Origin: Bacteroidales bacterium
Lineage (GTDB): Bacteria > Bacteroidota > Bacteroidia > Bacteroidales > VadinHA17
Length of the DNA: 44,414 bases
Direction of reading: 5' to 3'
Assembly (NCBI GenBank): GCA_003162595.1
Contig: PMNJ01000345.1
Span: forward strand, 1 to 44,414
The notes beneath the pieces were generated by a model. That model saw nothing but the letters and a program-made list of their open reading frames with translations. It did not search any database and was not told the origin of the DNA. The position numbers and the translations under genes are program-made. Numbering within the stretch: position 1 is the first letter of the stretch; each line of letters starts with the position of its first letter. Below are positions 1,492 through 24,170 of this stretch, one piece after another.

Positions 1492-1690
1492 AATTTTTAA
1501 ATTTTAATACTTACTTACACGGTAACTTTCGCGATTACTTTAAAATATAAAAGTAGTTGTTTTTTCCACTCCGGCAAATTCTTTTAAAACATTTTTGACT
1601 GAATTTGACTTTTCTGAGAAATTCGATGTTTTCCTTCTATTTAAGTTTTACCCGAATTCAAAAAATCTTCCAATATTTTTCTTCTTTTCT
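1491..1690. repeat. Intergenic repeat family, copy A (longest, composite copy)
   Basis: 1491-1550 matches 32101-32160 at 57/60 ungapped positions. The core AACTTTCGCGATTACTTTAA (1524-1543) matches 15834-15853 at 18/20. 1639-1680 matches 7238-7280 with 39 identities in a 44-column alignment containing two 1-nt indels. CAAATTCTTTTAA (1575-1587) recurs at 32184-32196. Confidence 0.8.
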
Positions 1691-1867
1691 AAGTTTATGT
1701 GACTTCTATTTAACATCATTAGCGTCCATTAAAAACTAATGATAAATTATATTATATTTAGTTTGGGCTCCCCTTTTGGTAACATTACAATAGACAATTG
1801 AAATTGAAACAATCTCACACATATAAATTAACTACTTTTGAAAAGGAATTATCAAATCCATTAACTT

Positions 1868-3643
1868 ATGTTAGAAGAAAATCTTATGATACCATCTATG
1901 GATATTAAAAATGGGGACAATTTTTTGAATTCACAAACAGATTCCGAAGGTCAAAGGGACCATCGAATGGGTGGAACAAGTCGACTGACACTCTCAGAAT
2001 TCGCTAAGCTTAAAGAGCATCCTGACCTTTCCGTTCTTATTGTGGGCGGTGGCATTAATGGAATCGGCCTCCTGCGAGAGCTAGCATTACAGGGAATAGA
2101 CACTTTACTGGTTGACAAGTCCGATTTCTGCTCTGAAACCAGTGCAGCCATGACCCGTGTGATTCATGGGGGTCTCCGGTATCTTGAAAACGCTGAATTG
2201 CGTCTTGTACGTGAGTCCCTGCGTGAGCGTAACCTGCTATTGCAGAACGCTCCACACTACGTCAAGCCATTGGCAACGACTATTCCAATTTTCAGTTTGA
2301 CTTCTGGCATTATTCCTACTATCCGTAATCTTCTGGGATGGAACGCACGGCCGGGCAACAGGGGAGCATTGCTAATAAAAGCCGGCCTTACGCTGTACGA
2401 TTTGCTTGCAGGAAAGAAGTCTCCTCTTCCCAGGCACAGGTTCCGCTTTCGTCGCACAATTTTTGCACTACGGCCGGCTCTAAACCCCGGAGTGATCTGT
2501 ACCGCAACTTACTACGACGCAAGAATCACTTATCCTGAGAGGTTGTGCCTCGAATTGATCCAAGACGCAGAAGCGTCATTTCCCGAGGCACGAGCACTGA
2601 ATTATGTTAGCCTCCAGAGCGCCATAGGGAAAACTGTGGTACTGCGCAATGAGCTATCCGGCGAAACAACTGAAGTTAGGCCCAGAATTGTCATTAACGC
2701 AACGGGCGCATGGATCGATTTCACCAACCATAGCCTGGGGCAGAAGTCCTGCTTTATAGGCGGAACTAAAGGTTCCCACATTGTACTCAACCACCCTGGA
2801 CTTGTGGAAGCAACAGGCGACGAAATGATCTACTTCGTAAACCTGGACGGACGTATCTGCATCTTCTACGCAGTCGGCAGTAAAATTATCGCCGGCGCAA
2901 CCGATATCCCTACTGAAGACCCTGATGCAGTCTGTGACGAGGCTGAGGTAGATTACATTCTTGAGGCTCTGCAGCAGGTATTCCCTTCAATCCAAGTTGA
3001 TAGGTCACATGTAGTTTATCGGTTCTGTGGCGTTCGGCCATTGCCTCAAAGTAATACCTTAACACCAGGCCAGGTCAGCCGTGACCATAGCTTTCCGGTA
3101 CTGATCCCAGGAAACGGAATTGATTTTCCAATCTACTCCCTTGTCGGCGGAAAATGGACAACCTTCCGTGCACTGGCTGAGCAAGTAGCAGACGAGATTT
3201 TACGAGTTCTTGGACACCCTCGAATCTGCGATTCCGCGAATATTCCCATCGGTGGAGGCAAAAATTACCCCCCTAAGATGAATGAGCGGGAGGGAATACC
3301 CCGCCATCGGTTTGTAGAGCTCATAGAACGCTATGGCTCAAGGGCAGAAAAAGTCGCTACCTATCTACAGGCGGGTCCTGATGCTCTGTTGACCTATCAT
3401 AGCGGTTATTCCCGGCGGGAGATTGAATTCATAGCACGATACGAGAGAGTAGCTCACCTTGACGACCTGATCCTGAGACGAACATTAATGGGTATACTGG
3501 GTGAAGTGAGCCTGGCTTTGCTGGAAGAACTGGCAGCAATTATTTCACCGGTGCTTGAATGGTCTCCGCAGGAATCGAAAGCCGAGGTTGTACGAACCGT
3601 GGAGCTTCTTCAGAGAGTTCACGGTGTGATGCTGGCCAGGTGA
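1868..3643 (+). CDS. FAD-dependent glycerol-3-phosphate dehydrogenase family protein (GlpD/EryB-like polyol-phosphate dehydrogenase)
   Basis: Collinear with remembered E. coli GlpD blocks: LIVGGGINGIGLL, TSAAMTRVIHGGLRYLENAELRLVRESLRERNLL, INATGAWIDF, GSHIVL, CGVRPL, GGKWTTFRALAE. The start is uncertain. The first ~25 codons are AT-rich, and the ATG at 1967 (MGGTSRL...) is an alternative. This is the only supported plus-strand gene. Confidence 0.85.
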   Translation: MLEENLMIPSMDIKNGDNFLNSQTDSEGQRDHRMGGTSRLTLSEFAKLKEHPDLSVLIVGGGINGIGLLRELALQGIDTLLVDKSDFCSETSAAMTRVIHGGLRYLENAELRLVRESLRERNLLLQNAPHYVKPLATTIPIFSLTSGIIPTIRNLLGWNARPGNRGALLIKAGLTLYDLLAGKKSPLPRHRFRFRRTIFALRPALNPGVICTATYYDARITYPERLCLELIQDAEASFPEARALNYVSLQSAIGKTVVLRNELSGETTEVRPRIVINATGAWIDFTNHSLGQKSCFIGGTKGSHIVLNHPGLVEATGDEMIYFVNLDGRICIFYAVGSKIIAGATDIPTEDPDAVCDEAEVDYILEALQQVFPSIQVDRSHVVYRFCGVRPLPQSNTLTPGQVSRDHSFPVLIPGNGIDFPIYSLVGGKWTTFRALAEQVADEILRVLGHPRICDSANIPIGGGKNYPPKMNEREGIPRHRFVELIERYGSRAEKVATYLQAGPDALLTYHSGYSRREIEFIARYERVAHLDDLILRRTLMGILGEVSLALLEELAAIISPVLEWSPQESKAEVVRTVELLQRVHGVMLAR

Positions 3644-5145
3644 TCGAAGTCACCCTTCAAGTGTTCGTAAATGTCCAGGAACACCTGATAGCTCAGCATA
3701 TACCTTTTATGATTCTCCTCGTTTGGTTCGAAGCGTCTGTCAAGATGCACCATTTCCGTGAGTGATTTACGGATATCCGGAAAGATTCCGGTGCCCATTC
3801 CCGCAAGGACAGCAGCTCCGAATGGTGAACCTACCGAGGTGCGAGGCAGCAATAAAGGAAGTCCCAACACATCCGCCTTAATCTGATTCCAAAGATCGCT
3901 GCGGCTGCAGCCGCCAACGCTCCTCACTTCCCTGACTTCTGCACCTGCTTTCATTGCCACCTCTATATTGTGGCGGAGCGCAAATGCCGTGCCTTCTAAA
4001 ATAGAACGCACAAGCGCAGCTTTGGAGGTGGCAAGCGACAAACCGAAAAACACCCCGCGGGCATTTGTATGCCATAGGGGTGATCGTTCCCCCATCATAT
4101 AAGGAAGAAAAATAACACCGTCGCTGCCAGGCTTAATACCTGCTGCTTGTCCAGTAAGCAGATCAAATGCATCAGTCTTATTCTCAGATGCTGTATGTAC
4201 TTCAATTTGTCCCAACTGATCCCGGAACCAGCGCAGGCATCCTCCCGATGCGACCATTGCTCCCAACAGCAAATGGATTCCAGACAAGGCGTGCGGCATG
4301 GCGATCAGTGCCGGCTCTGTCAGGCCTTTATCATTAGGCATGATGATCACCGTTGAAGTACCTGTCATTTCGACTGCGATACCTGGTTCAACCACTCCTG
4401 CCTCCAGAGCAGCCGAGGCACTGTCTACTGTCCCTGCCATAACAGGAGTACCGGTTTTTAACCCGGTTGCCTCCGACGCCTCCGCAGTTACCCTACCCTG
4501 AATCAAATGTGCCGCCATAACCTCAGGGAATTGCGAAGTCTTTATTCCGCAGATATTGCAAAGAGCTTCAGACCATTCATCCTTCTGATAATCGCGCAAT
4601 TGCATAAGCGCAGCATTAGAGGGATCCAGGGTAAGCCGTCCTGTAAGCCGGTAATTAATATAGCTGTTTACTTGGACAAACTGCCAGGTTTTCTTTAAAA
4701 CTTCAGGTTCATTATTCTGAAGCCATAGAAGCCGGGCCGCAAGATAAAAAGCATCCGGACGGTTACCTGTTATCCTGTAGATTTGATCTGCTCCCAGCAT
4801 CTCCGTCAGCCGGATAGTCTCAGCTTCCGCACGACGGTCCATCCAGATCATCGCGGGACGCAAAGGTTTTCCGGAATGATCCAGTGCCAGAAGAGCAGGT
4901 GCCTGGCAACTTACTGCAAGTCCAATAACACTTTCTGCACTGTCTGGAACCTTTGAAAGCGCCTCTTTTACGGCCTTGCAGGTTCCATGCCACCAATCCT
5001 CAGGATCCTGCTCAACCCAGGCAGGTCGGATGTGGTGCAGTGGATATTCCGCCTGCCCATCTGCAAGAAGGTTTCCTCTTTTGTCAATAAGAACAGCTTT
5101 GACGGAACTGGTTCCTACATCGATACCAAGCAATAGTGATCCCAT
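3619..5145 (-). CDS. FGGY-family carbohydrate kinase (xylulokinase-like)
   Basis: The N-terminus reads MGSLLLGIDVGTSSVKAVLIDKRGNLL...PAWVEQDPEDWW, typical of XylB-like FGGY kinases. I trimmed the start from the track ORF (5292) to the ATG at 5145. The extension overlaps the transporter gene and precedes the conserved GIDxGT phosphate-1 motif. Confidence 0.85.
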   Translation of the reverse strand: MGSLLLGIDVGTSSVKAVLIDKRGNLLADGQAEYPLHHIRPAWVEQDPEDWWHGTCKAVKEALSKVPDSAESVIGLAVSCQAPALLALDHSGKPLRPAMIWMDRRAEAETIRLTEMLGADQIYRITGNRPDAFYLAARLLWLQNNEPEVLKKTWQFVQVNSYINYRLTGRLTLDPSNAALMQLRDYQKDEWSEALCNICGIKTSQFPEVMAAHLIQGRVTAEASEATGLKTGTPVMAGTVDSASAALEAGVVEPGIAVEMTGTSTVIIMPNDKGLTEPALIAMPHALSGIHLLLGAMVASGGCLRWFRDQLGQIEVHTASENKTDAFDLLTGQAAGIKPGSDGVIFLPYMMGERSPLWHTNARGVFFGLSLATSKAALVRSILEGTAFALRHNIEVAMKAGAEVREVRSVGGCSRSDLWNQIKADVLGLPLLLPRTSVGSPFGAAVLAGMGTGIFPDIRKSLTEMVHLDRRFEPNEENHKRYMLSYQVFLDIYEHLKGDFDHLASITP

Positions 5146-5159
5146 ACAACAATTAATGG

Positions 5160-6200
5160 TTATTGGATAGCGTAGAGAGGGGCGATTGAAACCAGTATCA
5201 GACCCGCCAGATAAAACAGGAACATGAGAACAAGCAATCGGGTTACACGTGGTCCGCCTCCTGCGAACTCCTTCCAGGCAAGAACGCCCCAAAGGGCTCC
5301 AACCATGGTTGAGCCTTGCCCGATAGCGTAGCTGATCGCCGGTCCAATCTGTAAAGCCTTAGGTGCGCTGGCAGCGACGAAGTTTGACAAAGAACCGGTA
5401 ATCCAGATCAGGCCACCTAAAATCCCAAGAAAGTGAACCCAAGCATTGCCTTTCAGATAATCTTTGAAAGTCAACCGTGAGCCCTCAATCGGGTATCGCA
5501 TAAAATAAAGATTAAGAAAGAAAACAGAAACCAATACACCCAGACTAAAAATGAATCCAACAGCATAAGGACCCAATCCGCTTTCTCCCTTCTTACCGAT
5601 TTCGACAAGCGGGTAGAAAGTACCCATCAATAAACCTCCAATTATAGCAAGCTTAATCCCCTTCCAGGTGGAGGCTTTCCTGGCGATGACATCTGCCTTA
5701 TCGCCAGTATCACTTTTACTGGCTGCAAGTGCCCGGTAAGCGATGGCATCCACGATGATAGCAGCCACAACCAGTGCAACACCGGCAAACAGTAAATAAG
5801 GATTTCCCTGCGGGTTAACAATGTAATTCCAGATAACCCCAACTACCAGGGCAAGTCCAACACCTATGGGAAACCCCACACCCATCCCAGCTACAGCAAT
5901 GGCGCCCACTACAAGGATGTTCGAGAGATTAAAAATGACACCACCTGCGAAACCGCAAATTATATTAATAGTTCCCGCGTGTGAAAGATCATTAACAAAG
6001 GTGAGTCCGCCGGCTCCCCATGTACCGAATGTCAATCCGGCAAGAAGTGCACCCAGCGCCACTCCGATTGAGTAGTCATAGTAGAGGAGTTCAAAACGCC
6101 AGCCTTTAGCAAACTTTAGCACATTAGTCCATGATCCCCAGCAGATCATGGTCAGAATAGTGAGCATCAAAACCATCAGATAAGTGTGTGGAAGAGTCAT
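5160..6200 (-). CDS. Polytopic sugar transporter of the DMT superfamily (GRP / RhaT-like, about 10 TM)
   Basis: 346 aa, almost entirely hydrophobic segments. It has an N-terminal CWGSW motif and a central charged loop (ASKSDTGDKADVIARKAS) splitting two 5-TM halves, as in GRP-type glucose/ribose porters. Substrate unknown. Confidence 0.65.
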   Translation of the reverse strand: MTLPHTYLMVLMLTILTMICWGSWTNVLKFAKGWRFELLYYDYSIGVALGALLAGLTFGTWGAGGLTFVNDLSHAGTINIICGFAGGVIFNLSNILVVGAIAVAGMGVGFPIGVGLALVVGVIWNYIVNPQGNPYLLFAGVALVVAAIIVDAIAYRALAASKSDTGDKADVIARKASTWKGIKLAIIGGLLMGTFYPLVEIGKKGESGLGPYAVGFIFSLGVLVSVFFLNLYFMRYPIEGSRLTFKDYLKGNAWVHFLGILGGLIWITGSLSNFVAASAPKALQIGPAISYAIGQGSTMVGALWGVLAWKEFAGGGPRVTRLLVLMFLFYLAGLILVSIAPLYAIQ

Positions 6201-6352
6201 AATATGTACTTTTTATGGTTAAATATATTTGATATAGAAAACTGTTTCAATTACTAACTTTGTTTATTATGATATTCTTCAAATATTTAATATAATACTT
6301 TTAATGAATATTTATAAGAGTTCCTAATGAACAAAGAGTAAATGTGAAATTA

Positions 6353-6667
6353 CTAATTTTCAAGTTTCGAATTTTTAATATCTTCAAGATATTGTTTAAT
6401 TTTTTGATTTTCCTCTTTCCTGATGATGAGAAGGGCATCGAAGGTATCCACAACAATATACTCGTTCAACCCTTGCAACAGAGCAATTTTTGGGTGGTAT
6501 GCTTATTAAATTCCCTTTACTGGCTTAAGTAAAGACTTTACCACATACTATTCATTTTCATTATCATCGATGGTTGTTTGCACGTACAGCGAACCCCATG
6601 CACCAAGATCGGACCATCCCATTTCTGCAGTTGTTCCAATAAAAATCACCACTTTTAAAAAGTGCAT
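6353..6667 (-). pseudogene. Decayed 3' fragment of a mannose-1-phosphate guanylyltransferase gene (manC-like)
   Basis: A single minus-strand frame reads MHFLKVVIFIGTTAEMGWSDLGAWGSLYVQTTIDDNENE*YVVKSLLKPVKGI**AYHPKIALLQGLNEYIVVDTFDALLIIRKEENQKIKQYLEDIKNSKLEN*. The GWSDLGxWxSLY and IVVDTxDALLI blocks are hallmarks of the C-terminal third of ManC-type enzymes. There are three in-frame stops, and the N-terminal two thirds are missing. Confidence 0.6.
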
Positions 6668-6681
6668 TTGCCAGATTCCTA

Positions 6682-7089
6682 TCAGGCTTCCCGGTAATTT
6701 TTTTTAATTTGTCCGCTTATGGCCATGAATTCTTTTTTCTGGTCCATTTCATAAATACGTTCCATTAATATCCACTTACTTCCGGCAGAAGAATCAATGC
6801 TGGTATTCTGAAACCTAGAGACGAAACTTTCCCATTCTTTTTGTCTTGGTTTGGACGCAAGTTCCAGCATATTTTTATTATGGTCAAAATCTGCCACGGT
6901 ATCCATAATCATAAATAATATGTTCCCATGAATATATATCTCCATATCAATAATACCGACTTCTTTCATTCCCTGAGTAATTTCGGGCCACGCCTTATTT
7001 ATTGCATGAACTTCTTTATACTGGCTGAGAAGCTCAGGATCATCTTTCAGAGTAAGGATTTTGCAATATCGTTTAAATAAATATTCCAT
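6682..7089 (-). CDS. L-rhamnose mutarotase family protein (RhaM/DUF718-like deoxy-sugar mutarotase)
   Basis: 135 aa. The pattern YKEVHAINKAWPEITQGMKEVGIIDMEIYIHGNILFMIMDT...KEWESFVSRFQ parallels E. coli RhaM ([28 protein letters not shown]...LLFAMVE...RWWKYM). Specificity (rhamnose versus fucose) cannot be decided. Confidence 0.7.
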   Translation of the reverse strand: MEYLFKRYCKILTLKDDPELLSQYKEVHAINKAWPEITQGMKEVGIIDMEIYIHGNILFMIMDTVADFDHNKNMLELASKPRQKEWESFVSRFQNTSIDSSAGSKWILMERIYEMDQKKEFMAISGQIKKNYREA

Positions 7090-7308: not shown

Positions 7309-8715
7309 TTAAATGCGAAATTGTTTGTAAGGACCTTTGTATTTTATAACAATTATATTATCAATTGAATCAATTGGTTGCTCGGGTAGATAGATCATCA
7401 AACCCTGAGAATGAACATCTACTTTTAATGGTTTCTTTTCTTTATCCGCAAGTAAATAAGCATTATTAAATTCATTGACAAAATCATTCAGGTAGAGCAT
7501 ATTATCCCCCGGCCACCGGAACAGGTGCAGATACAAAGTATTGGGTTTTGCTGTAATCCCGCTGATACTGTTATTCCATCTTACCGATGGTCCACCGCTT
7601 GTTGTGCCATATATAGCTTCACCATTTACAGAGAGCCAATTTCCTACTTTTTTCAAAATTGCCTGTGCTTTTTCGGGCATTACTCCCTCGCTTGTAGGGC
7701 CGACATTTAAAAGATAATTGCCACCTTTTGATGCTATGTCTACCAGATTAGAGATTACCTCATCTGCACTTTTAAAAGTAGTATCGGTTTTATTATATCC
7801 CCAGCTTCCGTTCAAAGTCATGCAAACTTCAAATGCAGTGCTTTGAGAACCGCCAGGTATTTCCTGTTCCGGAGTCCCATAATCTGCTCCGATGCCTCCC
7901 ATCCGGTTGTTAATAAGGCATTTGGGTTGCCATTTATGGATGGAATCAACCAAAGCTAAAGCCATTTCACGGTTCTGCAATTCATCCGGATCAAATGCCG
8001 GACCAGACCAATCCCACCAGATAATACCAATATCACCATAGTTTGTAAGAAGTTCCTTTACCTGACCTTCGAGATATGCGAAATACTTTTTATAGTCGGC
8101 ATCGCGATTGGGGAACCCATGAAATCCTTCTGGATACTGTTTGGTATGGTAAGTATATTTTACCGGAAACTGAGGATGGTGCCAATCCTTTACTGAATAA
8201 TAAAAGCATAATTTCAATCCCTGTTTTCTGCATTCTTCAGCAAGCGCTTTCATTGGATCCTTCCCATATGGTGTGGCATCTACAATATTATAATTCGTCA
8301 GTTTTGAATCGAACATGCAAAAGCCTTCATGGTGTTTGGCGGTTATGACTATATATTTCATACCTGCTTGTTTTGCCATTGACACCCATTCTTTAGCAAT
8401 AAACCTGACCGGATTAAATTGTTTTGCAAGTTTTTCATATTCCTCACCGGGAATATTGGCACTATATTGTATCCATTCCCCGTAATTTTTTCTCCCATTC
8501 CATTCGCCGGCCGGTACGGAATAAAGTCCCCAATGGATAAACAGACCAAATTTTGCTTCCTGGAACCATTCTAATTTCTTTGACGAATCAATGGCTGAAT
8601 CATTCTTGGCTGATTCGTTTTTTTTAAGGTTACAGGATAATAAACTTACTGAAAGCCAAACACTGATTATAACCAGTTTTAAATATGTTTTATAATTCAT
8701 ATGTTCTATTGTCAT
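7309..8715 (-). CDS. GH29 alpha-L-fucosidase, probable lipoprotein
   Basis: LEWFQEAKFGLFIHWGLYSVPAGEW, AKHHEGFCMFDS and IIWWDW blocks are typical of GH29. The signal peptide ends in LLSC (lipobox-like). An alternative start is the ATG at 8700. Confidence 0.9.
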   Translation of the reverse strand: MTIEHMNYKTYLKLVIISVWLSVSLLSCNLKKNESAKNDSAIDSSKKLEWFQEAKFGLFIHWGLYSVPAGEWNGRKNYGEWIQYSANIPGEEYEKLAKQFNPVRFIAKEWVSMAKQAGMKYIVITAKHHEGFCMFDSKLTNYNIVDATPYGKDPMKALAEECRKQGLKLCFYYSVKDWHHPQFPVKYTYHTKQYPEGFHGFPNRDADYKKYFAYLEGQVKELLTNYGDIGIIWWDWSGPAFDPDELQNREMALALVDSIHKWQPKCLINNRMGGIGADYGTPEQEIPGGSQSTAFEVCMTLNGSWGYNKTDTTFKSADEVISNLVDIASKGGNYLLNVGPTSEGVMPEKAQAILKKVGNWLSVNGEAIYGTTSGGPSVRWNNSISGITAKPNTLYLHLFRWPGDNMLYLNDFVNEFNNAYLLADKEKKPLKVDVHSQGLMIYLPEQPIDSIDNIIVIKYKGPYKQFRI

Positions 8716-14114: not shown

Positions 14115-15743
14115 TCATTTCCCCGATATTTTTAATACATAAGCATATTGACAAGGTTGCGAAGCAGGTAACTGAACTGTAAGACCCTTCTCATTTTGAA
14201 CCCATTTTAATAAATCTTTTGAACCAAGCATTTGAATATCTCTTATTTCTCCAAACCAGAGCGCTTTTCCTTTATGCAATGATTTTATTGTGACCTCTTT
14301 CCCGGGCCAGGCCATCAGAATGGCATAAATACTTTTGCCCTTGGTTGTAAACCTGATGTCTTCAGCAGTGTATTCTTTTGGCCGGTTGCTTTGATTTCCT
14401 CTTACTTCCTGTACCTTAGTGGGTCCTTCTCCCATAATTTCCCATGGCCGTGTCCCGTGAATGGCCTCGCTGTTTACGGCCATCCATTGCGCCATTTCAT
14501 CAAGGAACTTATAGTAAGCATCAACGATGGTACCATCGGCACGAAGGTTAATATTTAGCAACAGATTCCCATTTTTACTTACTATATCCACCAGTTGTAA
14601 TACTACATCCTTTGTAAGGATGGGGCCTCTTCCCGAATATATGAGATACATGGGATTGATATAGAAAAATCCATCAAGGCCAGTATCAGTTTGCCAGGGA
14701 TATTTTCTTGGTATATCGCTCTGTGCGTTTTCAAGATCCAAAACAAGTGCTTTCTGCTGTTCTTCCGAACGCGATCCTTTAACATTAATTACAATCTCGT
14801 TTTTGCCGTTGTTCCATTTTTGACTTTGATTATAATAATAAGAGGCCATATCCAACCTGCGGAAAGGAAGACCGCCATCGTAATAAATCAGGTCAGGGTG
14901 ATAGTTGTCTATCAGGTCGACCATGCGGTTTATAAGAATCTGTTTAAAAAGTGAATCGGGTTGATCACCGTCATCACCAGGGAAAGGGCCTGAATAGGCT
15001 CCCTGCTTAGATCCTTTATGAGGCTGCCCGTATAAATCCCGCGGATCATACCCTTCCCACCATTTGCCTTTACCATCGGCCTTTGTCATCCATCCATCAT
15101 ATGGAACTCCTTTCAATGGTCCTGTTGTATCGGCCATGCGGGAAATCTCCCAGTATCTCCAGGTGCCTTCCCCATGATTTGAGACACCGAATTTCATGTT
15201 ATTATGTTTTGCAGCATTCTGCCATTCCTTCACTATATCCCTTTTAGGGCCCATATTCACTACATTCCATGGCTGATATTTGGAGTTCCACATATCGAAG
15301 TTATCGTGATGCATAGCCATGGACACAAAATATCGTGCGCCTGCCTTGTAGTAGAGTTTCATTAAAGCTTCGGGATCCCATTTAGCGCACGTGAATAAAG
15401 GAATTAAATCCTTAAACCCAAATTCAGAAGGGTGACCATATTTAATCAGGTGATAAGAGTAAGCGGGTATCAAATCAGGGAACGCCCAATTATTATCCTG
15501 TATATACAGTCGTCTGGGAAACCAGTCCCCGTACTCTGCCACACTGTTCGGACCCCAATGGGCCCAGATTCCAAACTTGGCATCGCGGAACCAATCGGGG
15601 CAATCGTATTGTTGGGAAAGCGATTCCCATGTCGGTTCAAAAGGTCCGGTTTTCGGCAGAAGCGGCTGTGCGGAACTGACAATGGACATTACCACAAAAA
15701 GCATACTGCATAGGCTAATTCGTGTAACAACATTCATTTTCAT
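14115..15743 (-). CDS. GH29 alpha-L-fucosidase (second, divergent paralogue)
   Basis: DWFRDAKFGIWAHWGPNSVAEYGDW, MAMHHDNFDMWNS and LIYYDGG blocks. SPI-type signal peptide (IVSSAQP). Confidence 0.9.
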   Translation of the reverse strand: MKMNVVTRISLCSMLFVVMSIVSSAQPLLPKTGPFEPTWESLSQQYDCPDWFRDAKFGIWAHWGPNSVAEYGDWFPRRLYIQDNNWAFPDLIPAYSYHLIKYGHPSEFGFKDLIPLFTCAKWDPEALMKLYYKAGARYFVSMAMHHDNFDMWNSKYQPWNVVNMGPKRDIVKEWQNAAKHNNMKFGVSNHGEGTWRYWEISRMADTTGPLKGVPYDGWMTKADGKGKWWEGYDPRDLYGQPHKGSKQGAYSGPFPGDDGDQPDSLFKQILINRMVDLIDNYHPDLIYYDGGLPFRRLDMASYYYNQSQKWNNGKNEIVINVKGSRSEEQQKALVLDLENAQSDIPRKYPWQTDTGLDGFFYINPMYLIYSGRGPILTKDVVLQLVDIVSKNGNLLLNINLRADGTIVDAYYKFLDEMAQWMAVNSEAIHGTRPWEIMGEGPTKVQEVRGNQSNRPKEYTAEDIRFTTKGKSIYAILMAWPGKEVTIKSLHKGKALWFGEIRDIQMLGSKDLLKWVQNEKGLTVQLPASQPCQYAYVLKISGK

Positions 15744-19066: not shown

Positions 19067-21196
19067 TTATGGGGTCAATTTGTTTTTATCAACACAGGTA
19101 ATGATTACGCTTGCGCTCTGTAATCCAGGAGACGAAGCGGTTACCGTAATAACTCCCGGGGAATATGACCTCATGGTCATCCTTGCCATACCATACCGAA
19201 TACATCGTGTATCAGGAGAGGTAGCATTGTTAAAGGACATTGAAGAACCAGTAGGAAAATATCCGACACCTGAGGTTACTGTAAGAGTTATGGTGGGATT
19301 ATTATCTATTGGAGTACCGTTTGCATCCGCGATTTGAGCAGAAAGCTCGCAATCGTCCATACCGTCGTTTCCAATGATGAGGGTATCCGCAGTTAGGATT
19401 ATTTTAGCAGCTATACCGGCTACGGGCAATTTATAGGGAGTCCCCAGATTTTCCATCCGGTACTGATACCACTCTGGACCAGGAATTCTATAATAATCGA
19501 CCACGCCGCCCAGTCCGCCATAATCACTTAGAAACGAGCCGTAGCCGTAGCCTACCCATCTGACTTGTCCTGCCCGCCAGGGATATTTCGCAACGCCGTT
19601 ATGGTCGTAGTACTCGGTTATCAAACTGGGCTTCCCGGGGTTTTGATAGGTAGAGATGGTCGCTCCATCCCCATTATATCCGATGATAGGGGCCAACTGA
19701 TCAAAACCACTTCGCTGTGCGCCGCCCACTGCAGACTCCCTTGAAGGATCGAGAGAATGTACAAGAGCCACCAGAACCTTATAGAAAGCTTTGCACTTGG
19801 TCATGGGTGTTCCATCTGGCACATCGAACGTTTCGTTTCCCATGCTCCAAATAATAATGCTTGGATGGTTTCGTCTTTCCCGAATAAATTCCGTTAATTG
19901 TTGCTTTAAATTTTCTTCAAACGGTTGCTCATCCTGAGTTTTGGTAGGATAGGAGCTTTGTCGCCAGCCACCGTCTTCGCTGGTGTTAAATCCGCCTACG
20001 CCCCAGAAAGAATTTTCTGCCCATGCAAGGATCCCCAACTGGTCGGTCGCATCATTCCATGAAACATCATGAGGGTTATGGCATTCCCTAATGAGATTGA
20101 AACCGGCCTCCTTCATAAGTTTTACGTCCCTTCGAAATCCCGCATTGGTCTGTGCAATCCCCCAGCCCGCACGATCGTCGTGGGCATTCACGCCATTGAT
20201 CAAAACATGCTTTCCATTCAGAAAGAACCCCTGATCGGCTGTCCACTCGATTGATCTGATGCCTAGCGGACTCTCGTAATTATCCACTACGCCATGTCCA
20301 TCCGATGCTGTGGTTAGCACCTTATACATATAGGGCATTTCGGGAGACCATAGATGTGGATTGGCAATGGGCTCACTGGTTTGGTCAAACTCATAAATTG
20401 TCCCTGCCATTATCGACTGAGTGCTTACCATGGATGTCACTATCGTATTGGTTGCATCTATGATGGTTGTCTTTACAGTGCAGTTTACCGGTTTAGCGTT
20501 TTCGTTTTTTATTTCCGTTTTTACCTTGACAGTTGCCTGAGACGCTGAAACCTGAGGAGTGGTGACAAATGTACCGTACCAAGTCACATGAAGCGGATTG
20601 GTAATAACAAGATATACGTCCCTGTGGATACCTCCTAAAAACAACCAGTCGGCCCCACGTGGGGCGATTTGCGGGTCCCACTTATTATTCACCCGTACTG
20701 CAATGACATTATCTCCTTCGGAGACTGCATTGGTGATATCGAAATAAAAACCTGTAAATCCGCCCTTATGGACCCCCATCAGTATCCCATTGACGTACAC
20801 CTCCGCTACCTGGAAAGCTGCCTCGAATTCCAGAAAGATTTTTTTTGAGTCTTTCCATTCAGCCCTCACGTTAATATGCCTCCTGTACCAACCGTATCCT
20901 ACATACCAGAAGGTCCCTTTTTTAAGTGAATAATAAGGAATATCAAATACATGGGGCAAGTTTACTTTAGTCCATTTAGCGTCGTTGTAACCGGTCGCTT
21001 CTGCACCGGTCATGTCTCCTTTATAAAATTTCCAGTCAGAATTCAGGATGATTTTTACCCGCTCGGCATTGAGAACGTTTGCCACGGCGGGAAGTTCTTT
21101 CGTATTGCACGAAGCAAGAAATGCCACTGAAACGATAAATGAAAATGCAAATACTGATATTAATAGTCTTTTTTTTATGAATTTCCTGTTAAACAT
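19067..21196 (-). CDS. GH2 glycoside hydrolase (beta-galactosidase/beta-glucuronidase-like) with a C-terminal Ig-like domain, probable lipoprotein
   Basis: GH2 sugar-binding domain pattern: WKFYKGD, FEAAFQVAEVYVNGILMGVHKGGFTGFYFDITN, GGIHRDVYL. Candidate catalytic residues sit in WSMGNETF and ITEYYDHNG. The C-terminal ITLTVTSG...VITVTASSPG looks Big_2-like. I set the start to the ATG at 21196 (MFNRKF...LASCN) because the track start at 21214 is a TTG. Confidence 0.85.
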   Translation of the reverse strand: MFNRKFIKKRLLISVFAFSFIVSVAFLASCNTKELPAVANVLNAERVKIILNSDWKFYKGDMTGAEATGYNDAKWTKVNLPHVFDIPYYSLKKGTFWYVGYGWYRRHINVRAEWKDSKKIFLEFEAAFQVAEVYVNGILMGVHKGGFTGFYFDITNAVSEGDNVIAVRVNNKWDPQIAPRGADWLFLGGIHRDVYLVITNPLHVTWYGTFVTTPQVSASQATVKVKTEIKNENAKPVNCTVKTTIIDATNTIVTSMVSTQSIMAGTIYEFDQTSEPIANPHLWSPEMPYMYKVLTTASDGHGVVDNYESPLGIRSIEWTADQGFFLNGKHVLINGVNAHDDRAGWGIAQTNAGFRRDVKLMKEAGFNLIRECHNPHDVSWNDATDQLGILAWAENSFWGVGGFNTSEDGGWRQSSYPTKTQDEQPFEENLKQQLTEFIRERRNHPSIIIWSMGNETFDVPDGTPMTKCKAFYKVLVALVHSLDPSRESAVGGAQRSGFDQLAPIIGYNGDGATISTYQNPGKPSLITEYYDHNGVAKYPWRAGQVRWVGYGYGSFLSDYGGLGGVVDYYRIPGPEWYQYRMENLGTPYKLPVAGIAAKIILTADTLIIGNDGMDDCELSAQIADANGTPIDNNPTITLTVTSGVGYFPTGSSMSFNNATSPDTRCIRYGMARMTMRSYSPGVITVTASSPGLQSASVIITCVDKNKLTP

Positions 21197-21251
21197 ATTG
21201 GTATATTTTCGCAATTAACTATTTCTAGAAAATATTATAAATCCACTTTTT

Positions 21252-24170
21252 TCAATTTCCATTACGATCCTGTCGATGGCCAGAGATACGGGCCAGAATC
21301 CGATCAAGAGCAACCGCATCAAAATATTCCTGATCCTGATTCTCGTAAGGTACATCAACCATTATAGGTACTTTAGGCTTCAGGCTGATAAATTTAACCA
21401 GTTCTTCCTCATGGTTCGATCCTGCGATCGGTCCGTAAACATTCCATCTCAGGCCTTCAAGGTCATAAGCCGAAGTACTAACAATCCACATGCCAATATG
21501 CTCTATGATCTCAGACGTGATTTCCTTTGGATCGGTCTTTGAGTCCATCAGCAGTGCAGTGCTAGGCGCAAGTTTCAGATTGGGGGCCCCTACCCTTTTG
21601 AGGAATTGCATCGCCTCAATCAGGTCGCTTGGCGGTCTGTTGGGCGCCAGACGAAGATAGACCGTTATATTACGCAATTCTGCTTCGCGACAAATTTTAG
21701 CAATAGTAGTATCATAACTCTTCCATGTGGCCTCATGTGAAATATTATTTTCGACGTATCTCTGAAGCGGAATCAGCAGATCATGTGCACCCAGAATTTC
21801 CATTTTCTCCACAACGTCGAGAATGCTTGCCACACTTTGTTTATATTCCGGTTCTATGTTGTTCACGATCCTGAGATCGGGAAAAAGGTTGATTCCCGAT
21901 GTCAGATCCACCATAACCCTTACCTTTTGCAACCCAAGCCAGCCTGCTTCCTGTTTAAGGGTCGATTTCTCAAGATGGGCTAAGTATTTCCAGTCTACGG
22001 TAACTCCGTCATAATGCTGGAAGAAGGTCGGCCTTGTAAGTATCTCATCCTGTATATTAACGGGTCCATGCAATGGAAGAAAACGATTTTGGGGATTAGC
22101 CGGAGGAGTAATATGAGCAATTTCTTCTACCCCTTCCTCCTTCACCCTGATATGGAAGATCCGGATATCACCGCCAGCGATAGTGTTCTTTCCGCTCGTG
22201 CCGATAATTGCATTCTCAAAGCCTTCCGGTAAATAACCGATGGCTTTTTTCTCAGACTGATCAAGCGGCATTTCATCAATTGTTTGTATCGGTCCAACTT
22301 TCGATACGATCCTTAATGGCAATTCCGTCAATGAGTTATTGGAAATACCGAGAGTGTAGTCGCCAGTCCCGCGCCGGCATACGATCAGTGAAAGCCCATC
22401 ACCGGCATCGAACAATTTCAGGCTCTGAAAGGCCTGATCCAGAATATCCCGGACATGATGCAGAATAGGATATGGATTTACTAACGGCTTATCTACAGGG
22501 CTTACTATTGGTTCCTTAACAGTGGTTTCTGCTCCAATCCCAAAGGGACTTGCAAACACCGTAATCATACCATTGCCCAGCGGCATCCTTATTACCGCCG
22601 GTGTCCCGTTCACACTGGCCAGAATCTGCGCTCCGGCAGGAACACTCAGGGGTAACAGTTCAAATGGCTGGCCCTCTGTGATCGAACCAGATCCAATAGA
22701 AATCTTTTGCTCACCGCTGAAAAGTCTGGCATGTCCTTCACTTTCAATACCAGCCAGACCACCTGGCAGATTCCGGAGACTGCCGGCCGTGATTAACAGA
22801 TTTCCGCCATGTTCAGCATAGGTACGGAGTTTGTCGCGAACCTCTGCCCCTCCGGAAAGTTCTCCTGCTACAATCATTAACGGATACCTCTCCAGAAGCC
22901 ACTCCGGTGCATCACTCAGGATGACATCAGATGCATCTCCATAGGGTGTGCTCGTTGCGAAACCTGTTTCGTCGTGAAAAAATGAAGAGTTCTGGTAGCC
23001 CGGGTAAAGCATATCAAAAATATTGTTTGTGAGATAATCTCCGCTGCCGTACGGAAGATTTCCCCACACACGGTAAAGGATATTATCGTAATCCGGAAAA
23101 ATCCAGCCCATATAGAAATCCATCATAATACATATCGGCGTTTGCATTACGCCGGGTTGGCCATTTACCCTGACCCATCTCTGGGCCGACTGCTGAATTT
23201 TACCGATAGGTGATAAGCTGTCGCCAGCGAACCATTCATTCTCGAAACCTACCAGCATTGAGTTATATAAAATGTGGCTGTAAAGAAGACGTTTCAGAAG
23301 ACTGAGACTGGTTCCCTTTGTGGGACTGCTTCTGGTGTCACCATAGCTCTTTCCTCCCCAGCGATTATAAATTGAGGCATTACCGAACCACGGCACACCA
23401 TACTCTTTACCTGCACCACGGTCAAACGCGTAAAACACCTGGGCATTTGGGTGTTCCTGCGCTGCCTCGGAACCTACTAATGTATATAACCCCTCCTTTA
23501 AAAAATAGTGCCCGTATGTAATAGCCGTAAGAGCGGCCATTTTGTTTCCGCACTCACTTGTTATCTTCTCCATATGCCTGTGAAAATTCAGATATTGCTG
23601 GGGCCGGTTAGCTGACGAAGGATACATCTGGCTGGCATAAGCTATAACGTAGCGTCCATCCTGTTCTCCCATATCCATGCCCAGCCAGTGGTCTCCGAGT
23701 TTTGTCTCAAACAAGCTTGATATCTCGGGAGTTAAGCCAACTTGCTGCCACTGCCCACCAGAGCCTGAACCCGGAACATAGCCCCATATCTCATACAAGA
23801 ATAGGTCACGCTTTTTTATTTCGTCTACCAGATCGGGGATGTTTTTAGCAACAAGGAATGAATTATTCGGCCAGATGAAATCGCCCAGATCAAATGTCTT
23901 TGTAAAACGCTCTATCTCCTCAGCGTAACCGGTAAGTTGTCCGTTTACCACACGAAATTGTCGCAGCGTTGTGAAATGCGTCCGGTCACCCATGAGGTTC
24001 CAATCCGGTGGCTTCACATGCCTGCGGGCATCATCCGGGTATTCGCGTGGATTGAGTAATTGCCCGTAAACCTTTAACCTGGCAGTGTGGATTGTCTGTG
24101 CACGCAGTGGTTGAACAATAACTAAAGTCAATATGAAGGCAATGGAAAGTCCAGATATCATTCTATTCAT
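21252..24170 (-). CDS. Large secreted multidomain protein of unknown family (GH42-like architecture plus an extra C-terminal TIM-like domain, by inference)
   Basis: 972 aa with a signal peptide (VQPLRAQ). aa ~25-410 contain MDMGEQDGRY and LVGFENEWF motifs. aa ~415-480, YPLMIVAGELSGGAEVRDKLRTYAEHGGNLLITAGS, resemble the GH42 middle (trimerisation/glutamine-amidotransferase-like) domain. aa ~590-680 look like a beta-sandwich. aa ~700-960 resemble a xylose-isomerase-like TIM barrel. I recognise no family-diagnostic motif. Confidence 0.55.
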   Translation of the reverse strand: MNRMISGLSIAFILTLVIVQPLRAQTIHTARLKVYGQLLNPREYPDDARRHVKPPDWNLMGDRTHFTTLRQFRVVNGQLTGYAEEIERFTKTFDLGDFIWPNNSFLVAKNIPDLVDEIKKRDLFLYEIWGYVPGSGSGGQWQQVGLTPEISSLFETKLGDHWLGMDMGEQDGRYVIAYASQMYPSSANRPQQYLNFHRHMEKITSECGNKMAALTAITYGHYFLKEGLYTLVGSEAAQEHPNAQVFYAFDRGAGKEYGVPWFGNASIYNRWGGKSYGDTRSSPTKGTSLSLLKRLLYSHILYNSMLVGFENEWFAGDSLSPIGKIQQSAQRWVRVNGQPGVMQTPICIMMDFYMGWIFPDYDNILYRVWGNLPYGSGDYLTNNIFDMLYPGYQNSSFFHDETGFATSTPYGDASDVILSDAPEWLLERYPLMIVAGELSGGAEVRDKLRTYAEHGGNLLITAGSLRNLPGGLAGIESEGHARLFSGEQKISIGSGSITEGQPFELLPLSVPAGAQILASVNGTPAVIRMPLGNGMITVFASPFGIGAETTVKEPIVSPVDKPLVNPYPILHHVRDILDQAFQSLKLFDAGDGLSLIVCRRGTGDYTLGISNNSLTELPLRIVSKVGPIQTIDEMPLDQSEKKAIGYLPEGFENAIIGTSGKNTIAGGDIRIFHIRVKEEGVEEIAHITPPANPQNRFLPLHGPVNIQDEILTRPTFFQHYDGVTVDWKYLAHLEKSTLKQEAGWLGLQKVRVMVDLTSGINLFPDLRIVNNIEPEYKQSVASILDVVEKMEILGAHDLLIPLQRYVENNISHEATWKSYDTTIAKICREAELRNITVYLRLAPNRPPSDLIEAMQFLKRVGAPNLKLAPSTALLMDSKTDPKEITSEIIEHIGMWIVSTSAYDLEGLRWNVYGPIAGSNHEEELVKFISLKPKVPIMVDVPYENQDQEYFDAVALDRILARISGHRQDRNGN

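Follow-up and report, generated by a model that had tools for sequence, protein, structure and literature searches.

Positions 1967–6200 of the window, that is, of the whole 44,414-nucleotide stretch analyzed here, probably represent a laterally acquired, self-contained catabolic cassette of three genes with an import-phosphorylate-oxidize mechanism, a reading to which we assign a probability of about 0.6. The window is one contig (C333) of a Bacteroidales metagenome-assembled genome (MAG) of 3.73 Mb (38.2% G+C, 372 contigs, 85.6% complete, 4.7% contamination), and the block in question (1868–6200) carries three intact genes: a putative GlpD-family FAD-dependent polyol-phosphate dehydrogenase of a "long-loop" subfamily (1967..3643, plus strand; 558 residues), an FGGY carbohydrate kinase of a separate, uncharacterized clade (3619..5145, minus strand; 508 residues) and a Ureide_permease-like permease of the GRP/DMT superfamily (5160..6200, minus strand; 346 residues). 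Dehydrogenase and kinase genes are convergent, and their coding ends overlap tail to tail by 25 nt (3619..3643); only 14 nt separate the permease gene from the kinase gene downstream of it, and the two are probably co-transcribed. The dehydrogenase open reading frame (ORF) is open over 1868–3643, and the ATG at 1967 is the likely true start because a stop interrupts the equivalent of codons 1–33 in the closest relative. A longer, TTG-started kinase ORF reaching up to 5292 was rejected, as homologs give it no support. Pfam and NCBIfam profile matches confirm the three genes named in an earlier reading of the sequence alone (hereafter, the sequence-only reading), which had seen in them an erythritol-type "phosphorylate then oxidize" module, possibly fed by a neighboring polysaccharide utilization locus (PUL).

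A three-gene cassette recurs in four phyla

A search with the dehydrogenase returned ~8,000 related proteins, the best 120 of which are 72–100% identical to it, and the nearest public relative is labeled Bacteroidales. The gene order, with the dehydrogenase facing the kinase and the permease upstream of the kinase, recurs in Opitutae, Opitutaceae, Tepidisphaeraceae, many Bryobacterales, Acidobacteriaceae and Granulicella, as well as in another Bacteroidales MAG (89–95% identity) and on a third low-G+C contig with SusC and anti-sigma neighbors. Identities are 81–83% for the three proteins of the Opitutae copies and 72–83% across the Opitutae, Tepidisphaeraceae, Bryobacterales and Acidobacteriaceae copies; gene by gene, the dehydrogenase is 72–90% identical to cassette homologs in four phyla and the permease 69–93% identical to its counterparts in other cassettes. 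All three Bacteroidota-type copies share with those of Opitutae, Opitutaceae, Tepidisphaeraceae and L077 a dehydrogenase-kinase overlap of exactly 25 nt; the overlap measures 46–52 nt in the Bryobacterales copies and is missing from the two Acidobacteriaceae loci, and the gap between permease and kinase genes is 13–33 nt in most loci.

The genes that flank the cassette are unrelated between hosts (spermidine-synthase-like, tetratricopeptide repeat [TPR], penicillin amidase, ketoacyl synthase [KAS], UbiE and others), and because the surroundings differ completely, the three genes stand out as a conserved unit. This supports the view of the sequence-only reading that they form a functional unit, which has been inherited together, in a fixed arrangement, in four phyla. 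A more distant Acidobacteriota variant has a short-chain dehydrogenase/reductase (SDR) gene between the dehydrogenase and kinase genes. Separately, in a Granulicella MAG (L016, 9692–12679), a 3-kb insertion carrying a 603-residue ORF with no Pfam match parts the dehydrogenase from the kinase; we saw the pair split at no other locus of the cassette.

Base composition and lateral acquisition

The segment 2001–6000, at 49.8% G+C, is the highest of the 1547 4-kb intervals of the genome (mean 38.0%, standard deviation [sd] 2.4%). The three cassette genes have G+C contents of 0.48–0.51 and third-position G+C contents (GC3) of 0.46–0.47, compared with 0.391 (sd 0.030) and 0.349 (sd 0.040), respectively, for the ORFs of the genome, and the G+C contents of the kinase and dehydrogenase genes exceed those of all twelve listed highest-GC3 ORFs of at least 300 residues. 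First and second codon positions (GC1 and GC2) are outliers as well, the G+A+R+P content of the cassette proteins reaches or exceeds the genome's 99th percentile, and the F+Y+M+I+N+K content of the dehydrogenase and the kinase does not exceed its 0.2 percentile; given the GC1/GC2 shift and this amino-acid make-up, the cassette proteins resemble those of a high-G+C organism. The intergenic regions bordering the block have 26–30% G+C. The G+C excess that had been counted by hand, and taken as consistent with lateral acquisition, persists as an extreme deviation when 4-kb intervals and codon positions are analyzed across the genome.

The difference in G+C content between cassette and flanks is +0.09 in three hosts of ~40% G+C and 0.00 to +0.04 in hosts of 58–66% G+C, and GC3 is ~0.80 in the high-G+C copies versus 0.42–0.47 in the Bacteroidota copies. 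We sampled 300 further genomes of the window's order, which span 208 genera and include two genomes of the same genus that are 98–100% complete, and found the dehydrogenase (E ≤ 1e-120) in none of them. Because donor-type hosts match the cassette in G+C content and none of these 300 genomes carries it, lateral acquisition into a low-G+C Bacteroidales genome is well supported, as had been proposed. The cassette is patchy everywhere: among 301 sampled genomes of the class to which a Bryobacterales MAG (G004) belongs, the kinase occurs in only four, one of them G004, and this rarity leaves too few carriers for a test of anticorrelation between cassette and GlpK across that class.

In a concatenated dehydrogenase-kinase tree (1058 columns, LG+C20), the Bacteroidota copies form a clade (support 100/100) nested within a group of Tepidisphaeraceae and Opitutae, that is, of the Planctomycetes-Verrucomicrobia-Chlamydiae (PVC) assemblage (93/89), which is in turn sister to an Acidobacteriota group (99/96). 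In the reading that we favor, the cassette would have arisen in, and would still move among, soil and peat bacteria of high G+C content (Acidobacteriota, Verrucomicrobiota, Planctomycetota), would have reached a lineage of Bacteroidota, the most probable donor being of PVC type (Planctomycetota/Verrucomicrobiota), and would since have been partially ameliorated, from a GC3 of ~0.80 to 0.47, while being retained under purifying selection. The ratio of nonsynonymous to synonymous substitution rates (dN/dS) relative to the sister Bacteroidales genome is 0.09–0.15 (kinase, 0.13), from which we conclude that the genes are in use in Bacteroidales. Between the two Bacteroidales copies (comparison with L006), dS covers a four-fold range (kinase, 0.17; dehydrogenase, 0.37; permease, 0.74), which hints at recombination inside the cassette.

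A MAG as fragmented as this one (372 contigs, 4.7% contamination), with the block only 1.9 kb from the contig end, invites the question of whether the G+C-rich segment is an artefact of assembly or binning. Low-G+C genes of host type lie on both sides of the block on the same contig, however, and the GC3 of the cassette is ameliorated to 0.47, as compared to ~0.80 in donor-type copies. The cassette is also present in an independent Bacteroidales MAG (90% nucleotide identity, with the same right-hand neighbors) and on a Logan contig, and because of these two further occurrences we regard an assembly artefact as excluded; the chance that the block is an artefact of any kind is negligible.

As to the mode of insertion, we found no bracketing repeats, and the ORFs annotated near the block include neither an integrase nor a transposase (tRNA genes were not scanned). 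No clean empty site was found in the same-genus genomes, where the flanks are 69–71% identical and lie on other contigs. The left flank (1–1565; epimerase and cytidylyltransferase-like genes), compared with two stretches of the sister genome (G001:C91:5748-7311 and G001:C137:36444-37997), is 85% identical to a different sister-genome contig and 76% identical to the copy near the sister's cassette, so that the left junction (~1566–1816) reflects a rearrangement or paralog swap between the two genomes. From 1817 onward, the window is similar to the cassette locus of the sister genome.

The kinase belongs to a separate clade

The kinase matches Pfam FGGY_N (204 bits) and FGGY_C (119 bits). Among NCBIfam hidden Markov models (HMMs), it scores 381.3 bits with TIGR01312 (XylB; cut-off, 380.25) and 215 bits with TIGR01311 (GlpK; cut-off, 590), and its best match among solved structures is E. 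coli XylB (PDB 2itm, E = 1e-64). The earlier description of the kinase as resembling a xylulokinase more than a glycerol kinase is thus borne out by the scores. In a tree that included E. coli GlpK, XylB, LsrK, LyxK, FucK and RhaB and a rhizobial EryA, however, the cassette kinases form a clade of their own (100/100), apart from GlpK, XylB, LsrK, FucK/RhaB and EryA/LyxK. The catalytic Asp is kept. The substrate loop reads S-C/S-Q-A-P, which is invariant in the cassette clade, compared with N-Q-R-E-T in GlpK and G-Q-M-H-G in XylB; an invariant Ala-Pro thereby occupies the positions of Arg83 and Glu84 of E. coli GlpK, the residues that bind glycerol in GlpK structures.

The XylB model is passed by ~1 bit only, the kinase groups neither with E. 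coli XylB nor with the XylB of its own genome, and the QMHG motif is absent; the HMM match probably overstates the similarity, because the clade is separate and the substrate loop different. The genome has its own XylB (C96), FucK (C107), AraB (C318) and RhaB-like (C171) kinases, and its XylB groups with that of E. coli at 99/98. It is against this background that we consider very unlikely the simplest view of the locus, namely that an ordinary xylulokinase and an ordinary GlpD happen to be neighbors with no pathway in common. That view could appeal to the TIGR01312 score and to public records, which call the dehydrogenase "glycerol-3-phosphate dehydrogenase/oxidase", but it would leave unexplained why the two genes have been transferred together, with overlapping 3' ends, in four phyla, and why the cassette kinase lacks the QMHG motif and falls elsewhere in the tree when a true XylB is present on C96.

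A long-loop subfamily of GlpD-like dehydrogenases

The dehydrogenase has a DAO (134 bits) and a DAO_C (68 bits) domain, and its best NCBIfam match is GlpD (NF008899) at 245 bits, under the 360-bit cut-off. All 46 invariant columns of a 31-row alignment of the GlpD family are kept, including H50, H233, R317, R332 and K354 (E. coli numbering). Because GlpD, EryB and the cassette enzyme share all of these residues, they define only the common CHOH-CH2-OP head group, and their retention is consistent with an enzyme that recognizes a CHOH-CH2-OPO3 head group and oxidizes the carbinol beside the phosphate. The enzyme has a 19-residue insertion after the equivalent of E. coli Pro90, common to the whole long-loop subfamily. 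Three substitutions are invariant in the cassette clade (E. coli S45 to M, "F-E-N" to "F-V-N" and T270 to A), and the motifs in which they fall are of polar character in the GlpK-linked enzymes.

The long-loop subfamily divides into three branches, which meet in a polytomy. The first consists of Chloroflexota enzymes encoded beside genuine GlpK genes, ~50% identical to the cassette enzyme and presumably glycerol-3-phosphate dehydrogenases. The second (Sinorhizobium pSymB, Rhizobium pRlX3, Parapedobacter, Acidisoma and an Anaerolineaceae MAG) adjoins LyxK/EryA-like kinase genes, and at its two rhizobial loci also genes for class I or class II fructose-bisphosphate-type aldolases, partners that would fit a ketose-1-phosphate product. 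The third is the cassette clade, including the distant Acidobacteriota variant with the SDR gene.

The permease is, as had been suggested, of the DMT/GRP type: it is a multi-span protein with at least eight hydrophobic segments in a crude hydropathy scan and a ureide-permease profile (PF07168, 53 bits versus a 27-bit cut-off), features of GRP/DMT sugar porters of the TC 2.A.7 type. Its match to the RhaT/GlcU model TIGR00776 is weak (29 bits versus 320).

Proposed mechanism and substrate

The best-supported mechanism is uptake followed by phosphorylation at a terminal position and then by oxidation beside the phosphate. The GRP/DMT-type secondary permease would import a small polyol or polyol-like compound, the new-clade FGGY kinase would phosphorylate a terminal hydroxymethyl group, and the GlpD-family flavoenzyme, membrane-associated and quinone-linked, would oxidize the adjacent secondary alcohol, yielding a keto group beside the phosphate (a "ketose-1-phosphate" type of product, or dihydroxyacetone phosphate [DHAP] if the substrate is glycerol). 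The analysis shows what the genes are, that the cassette is conserved and has been transferred, and that it is distinct from GlpK, XylB and EryA; the order of the reactions, the position of oxidation, the link to membrane and quinone and the class of substrate are what we infer. The cassette would work beside, and not instead of, the genome's own glpFKD, xylB, fucK and araB genes. For the substrate, we lean toward a C4–C6 or deoxy polyol, at nearly even odds; glycerol or a very close analog is somewhat less probable, and some other compound less probable again.

Several observations weigh against the cassette being a distinct, laterally acquired pathway of this kind. The subfamily holds the GlpK-linked Chloroflexota enzymes, and approximately unbiased (AU) tests (p = 0.45 and 0.40) do not separate a closer affinity to these from one to the aldolase-linked enzymes; the kinase lies marginally above the XylB cut-off; and a full-text search of the published literature returned no description of the cassette and no experiment tying a member of the clade to a substrate. 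A tree with the Bacteroidota at the base also survives the AU test (p = 0.10), so that topology alone leaves the direction of transfer unproven; the main grounds for it are base composition and the 25-nt overlap that Bacteroidota and PVC copies have in common. Finally, the cassette includes no aldolase or isomerase, and its product should therefore be either a central metabolite, which favors the conversion of glycerol to DHAP, or a compound handled by enzymes encoded elsewhere.

That the cassette is simply the housekeeping glpK/glpD pair can be rejected: a canonical glpD-glpK-glpF operon is present on another contig (C66; L076, 4564–8449, minus strand), with a GlpK scoring 830 and 753 bits, well above the cut-offs, a MIP channel at 178 bits and a GlpD only 27% identical to the cassette dehydrogenase, and the cassette kinase falls outside the GlpK clade. 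The cassette has the DAO plus DAO_C architecture and the conserved FAD- and phosphate-binding residues of a glycerol system, yet its dehydrogenase stays under the NCBIfam GlpD cut-off, its kinase is far below the GlpK equivalog score and its transport protein is of the GRP/DMT type and not a MIP facilitator. The sequence-only reading was thus right to set the pair apart from plain GlpK/GlpD, and the outcome that it had named as refuting it, a kinase that groups with bona fide glycerol kinases, is contradicted by the tree.

A subtler possibility is a second glycerol system, in which a proton-coupled permease takes the place of GlpF, a non-orthologous kinase makes sn-glycerol-3-phosphate and the GlpD-type enzyme converts this to DHAP, for example for high-affinity scavenging or for the use of glycerol from the beta-galactosyl-glycerol of plant galactolipids. 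The cassette is autonomous, occurring in unrelated contexts and with no downstream enzymes, and glycerol alone among polyols would give a product that calls for no additional enzyme; all invariant GlpD residues are kept, the subfamily extends to the GlpK-linked enzymes of Chloroflexota, and two Acidobacteriaceae carriers have no detectable GlpK. At 10 of 22 loci the cassette has as a neighbor a secreted GH35 (glycoside hydrolase [GH] family 35, DUF5597-type) beta-galactosidase, in every case with a signal peptide, and one such enzyme belongs to the PUL in the window; such neighbors would fit the release of glycerol from galactosyl-glycerol, and a literature search found no description of this DUF5597 association. 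On the other hand, bona fide GlpK is already encoded in nine of the 11 cassette-bearing genomes, this one included, the kinase has replaced Arg83/Glu84 with a clade-invariant Ala-Pro, the dehydrogenase carries its three cassette-specific substitutions at motifs conserved in the GlpK-linked enzymes, and the more distant cassette variant carries an SDR gene, observations that together make a second glycerol system less likely than not in our view.

For the erythritol pathway proposed in the sequence-only reading, we used as reference the complete locus on R. johnstonii plasmid pRlX3 (eryA-eryB-eryC-eryD, deoR-tpiB-rpiB and divergent eryEFG), the layout of which matches one described in PMC3599248; the ery locus is horizontally mobile (PMC3599248). 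The cassette kinase is 24% identical to EryA, which groups with LyxK (99/98) in another clade, and the dehydrogenase is 31% identical to EryB, which is sister to E. coli GlpD (100/99), with a long branch parting both from the cassette subfamily. No EryC homolog was found in this genome (85.6% complete), and there are no eryC-, tpiB- or rpiB-type genes in the Pfam-annotated cassette loci. The logic of an FGGY kinase coupled to a GlpD-family flavoenzyme is the same, and erythritol and other polyols are plausible compounds in peat and lichen habitats. Because the cassette enzymes are not orthologous to EryA and EryB, however, the comparison is an analogy of logic only, and an EryA/EryB-type pathway for erythritol is highly improbable; the affiliation is thus lost, and the dehydrogenase proves to be far from both E. 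coli GlpD and EryB.

What remains of the sequence-only reading is a distinct, foreign "phosphorylate then oxidize" module, detached from EryA/EryB and tied more weakly to the local PUL than had been proposed (see below). Going further, we tentatively suggest, at somewhat less than even odds, that the cassette is an undescribed route for a polyol or deoxy-polyol derived from plants, mosses, lichens or fungi, possibly an aglycone freed by a neighboring GH35 enzyme, in which a new kinase specificity and a new GlpD-subfamily specificity are combined in a plug-in module traded between Acidobacteriota, Verrucomicrobiota, Planctomycetota and Bacteroidota.

Genomic neighborhood

The block is bordered by an AT-rich, host-type region upstream of the dehydrogenase gene (1492..1966, plus strand, ~26% G+C) and a host-type intergenic region between the permease gene and the next gene (6201..6681, minus strand, 30% G+C). 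Rfam gave no match, and promoter and terminator scans yielded background level only. The next gene encodes a RhaM-family mutarotase (6682..7089, minus strand; Pfam rhaM, 90 bits) with host-like composition (G+C 0.355, GC3 0.36), followed by a GH29 gene (7309–8715, minus strand) upstream on the same strand as kinase and permease. The mutarotase had been placed upstream of the module on the same strand, which is correct with respect to the kinase and permease genes but not to the dehydrogenase gene, which lies on the opposite strand. RhaM adjoins the cassette only in two Bacteroidales genomes and is a host-native neighbor outside the transferred cassette.

In the sister Bacteroidales locus (L001), an intact gene for a 359-residue NTP_transferase (14475–15554) lies between the permease and RhaM genes. 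The window has at this place a short in-frame fragment (6550–6680, minus strand), reading ...MGWSDLGAWGSLY... (~6550–6640) and ...MGWSDLGAWGSLYVQTTIDDNENE followed by a stop, which by position and frame reading, unaligned, appears to be the decayed remnant of a sugar-1-phosphate nucleotidyl-transferase gene.

The flanks carry SusC/SusD-type PUL genes. The PUL itself (7309–43936, minus strand) encodes two GH29 fucosidases, a GH78, a GH31, a GH2, a Bgl35A/DUF5597-type GH35 (best PDB matches: 8z47, 3u7v, 7kmn and 5jaw), a beta-helix protein, a DUF5107 protein and an arabinose/fucose-isomerase-like protein, an enzyme set that would fit the breakdown of fucosylated xyloglucan or pectin side chains. 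Within it, the GH2 gene and the adjacent gene for a 972-residue protein with a weak AP_endonuc_2/xylose-isomerase-like TIM match (19067–24170, minus strand; G+C 0.46–0.47, GC3 0.46) are nearly as deviant as the cassette and may be a second foreign block. The suggestion that the cassette consumes a sugar or polyol released by this PUL is right as to position, since RhaM and the PUL do lie upstream, but the tie is weak: in other phyla the cassette has unrelated neighbors, and RhaM has a host-type G+C content.

Implications

The cassette is a conserved, widespread and uncharacterized "phosphorylate, then oxidize" module that is probably mis-annotated. Public records name these dehydrogenases glycerol-3-phosphate dehydrogenase, and pipelines may well call the kinase xylulokinase because the XylB cut-off is just cleared; should the cassette act on a different compound, metabolic reconstructions are misreading a carbon-use trait that is common in Acidobacteria, Verrucomicrobia and Planctomycetes of peat and soil. 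It also offers a clean example of the transfer of a whole small pathway across phylum boundaries, one in which amelioration can be followed, GC3 having moved from ~0.80 to 0.47 while the amino-acid make-up has stayed donor-like. Consisting of just three genes, it lends itself to easy laboratory testing, from which two well-studied enzyme families might gain a new specificity.

Comparison with known systems

With the glycerol system (glpF-glpK-glpD), the cassette shares the sequence of uptake, FGGY kinase and FAD dehydrogenase of DAO plus DAO_C architecture, together with the GlpD-invariant residues. It differs in that the kinase is not a GlpK ortholog and lacks the Arg-Glu pair that binds glycerol, the permease is of the GRP/DMT type and not a MIP channel, and the dehydrogenase shares only 27–30% identity with classical GlpD, its subfamily being marked by a 19-residue insertion; its genes are convergent and overlapping, unlike those of a glp-type operon, and coexist with a canonical glp set. 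E. coli XylB is the best structural match of the kinase, and its HMM is just passed, but clade and substrate loop (S-C-Q-A-P) are different. The erythritol system has the same succession of an FGGY kinase and a GlpD-family flavoenzyme oxidizing the carbinol beside the phosphate; the cassette has none of the EryC, EryD, TpiB and RpiB partners, and a GRP/DMT permease where the ery locus has an ATP-binding cassette (ABC) transporter.

Two uncharacterized rhizobial clusters, on S. meliloti pSymB (L080, 8908–14729) and R. johnstonii pRlX3 (L081, 7404–12951), contain dehydrogenases of the long-loop subfamily. The S. meliloti cluster adds a glucose-methanol-choline (GMC) oxidoreductase and the R. johnstonii cluster a sugar-phosphate isomerase, and the Rhizobium cluster lies directly beside the ery locus. 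Unlike the cassette, they have a kinase from another clade (~30% identity), an aldolase of their own, an ABC transporter and a SorC/DeoR regulator; like it, they pair an FGGY kinase with a long-loop dehydrogenase, 44–46% identical to the cassette enzyme and with the same 19-residue insertion.

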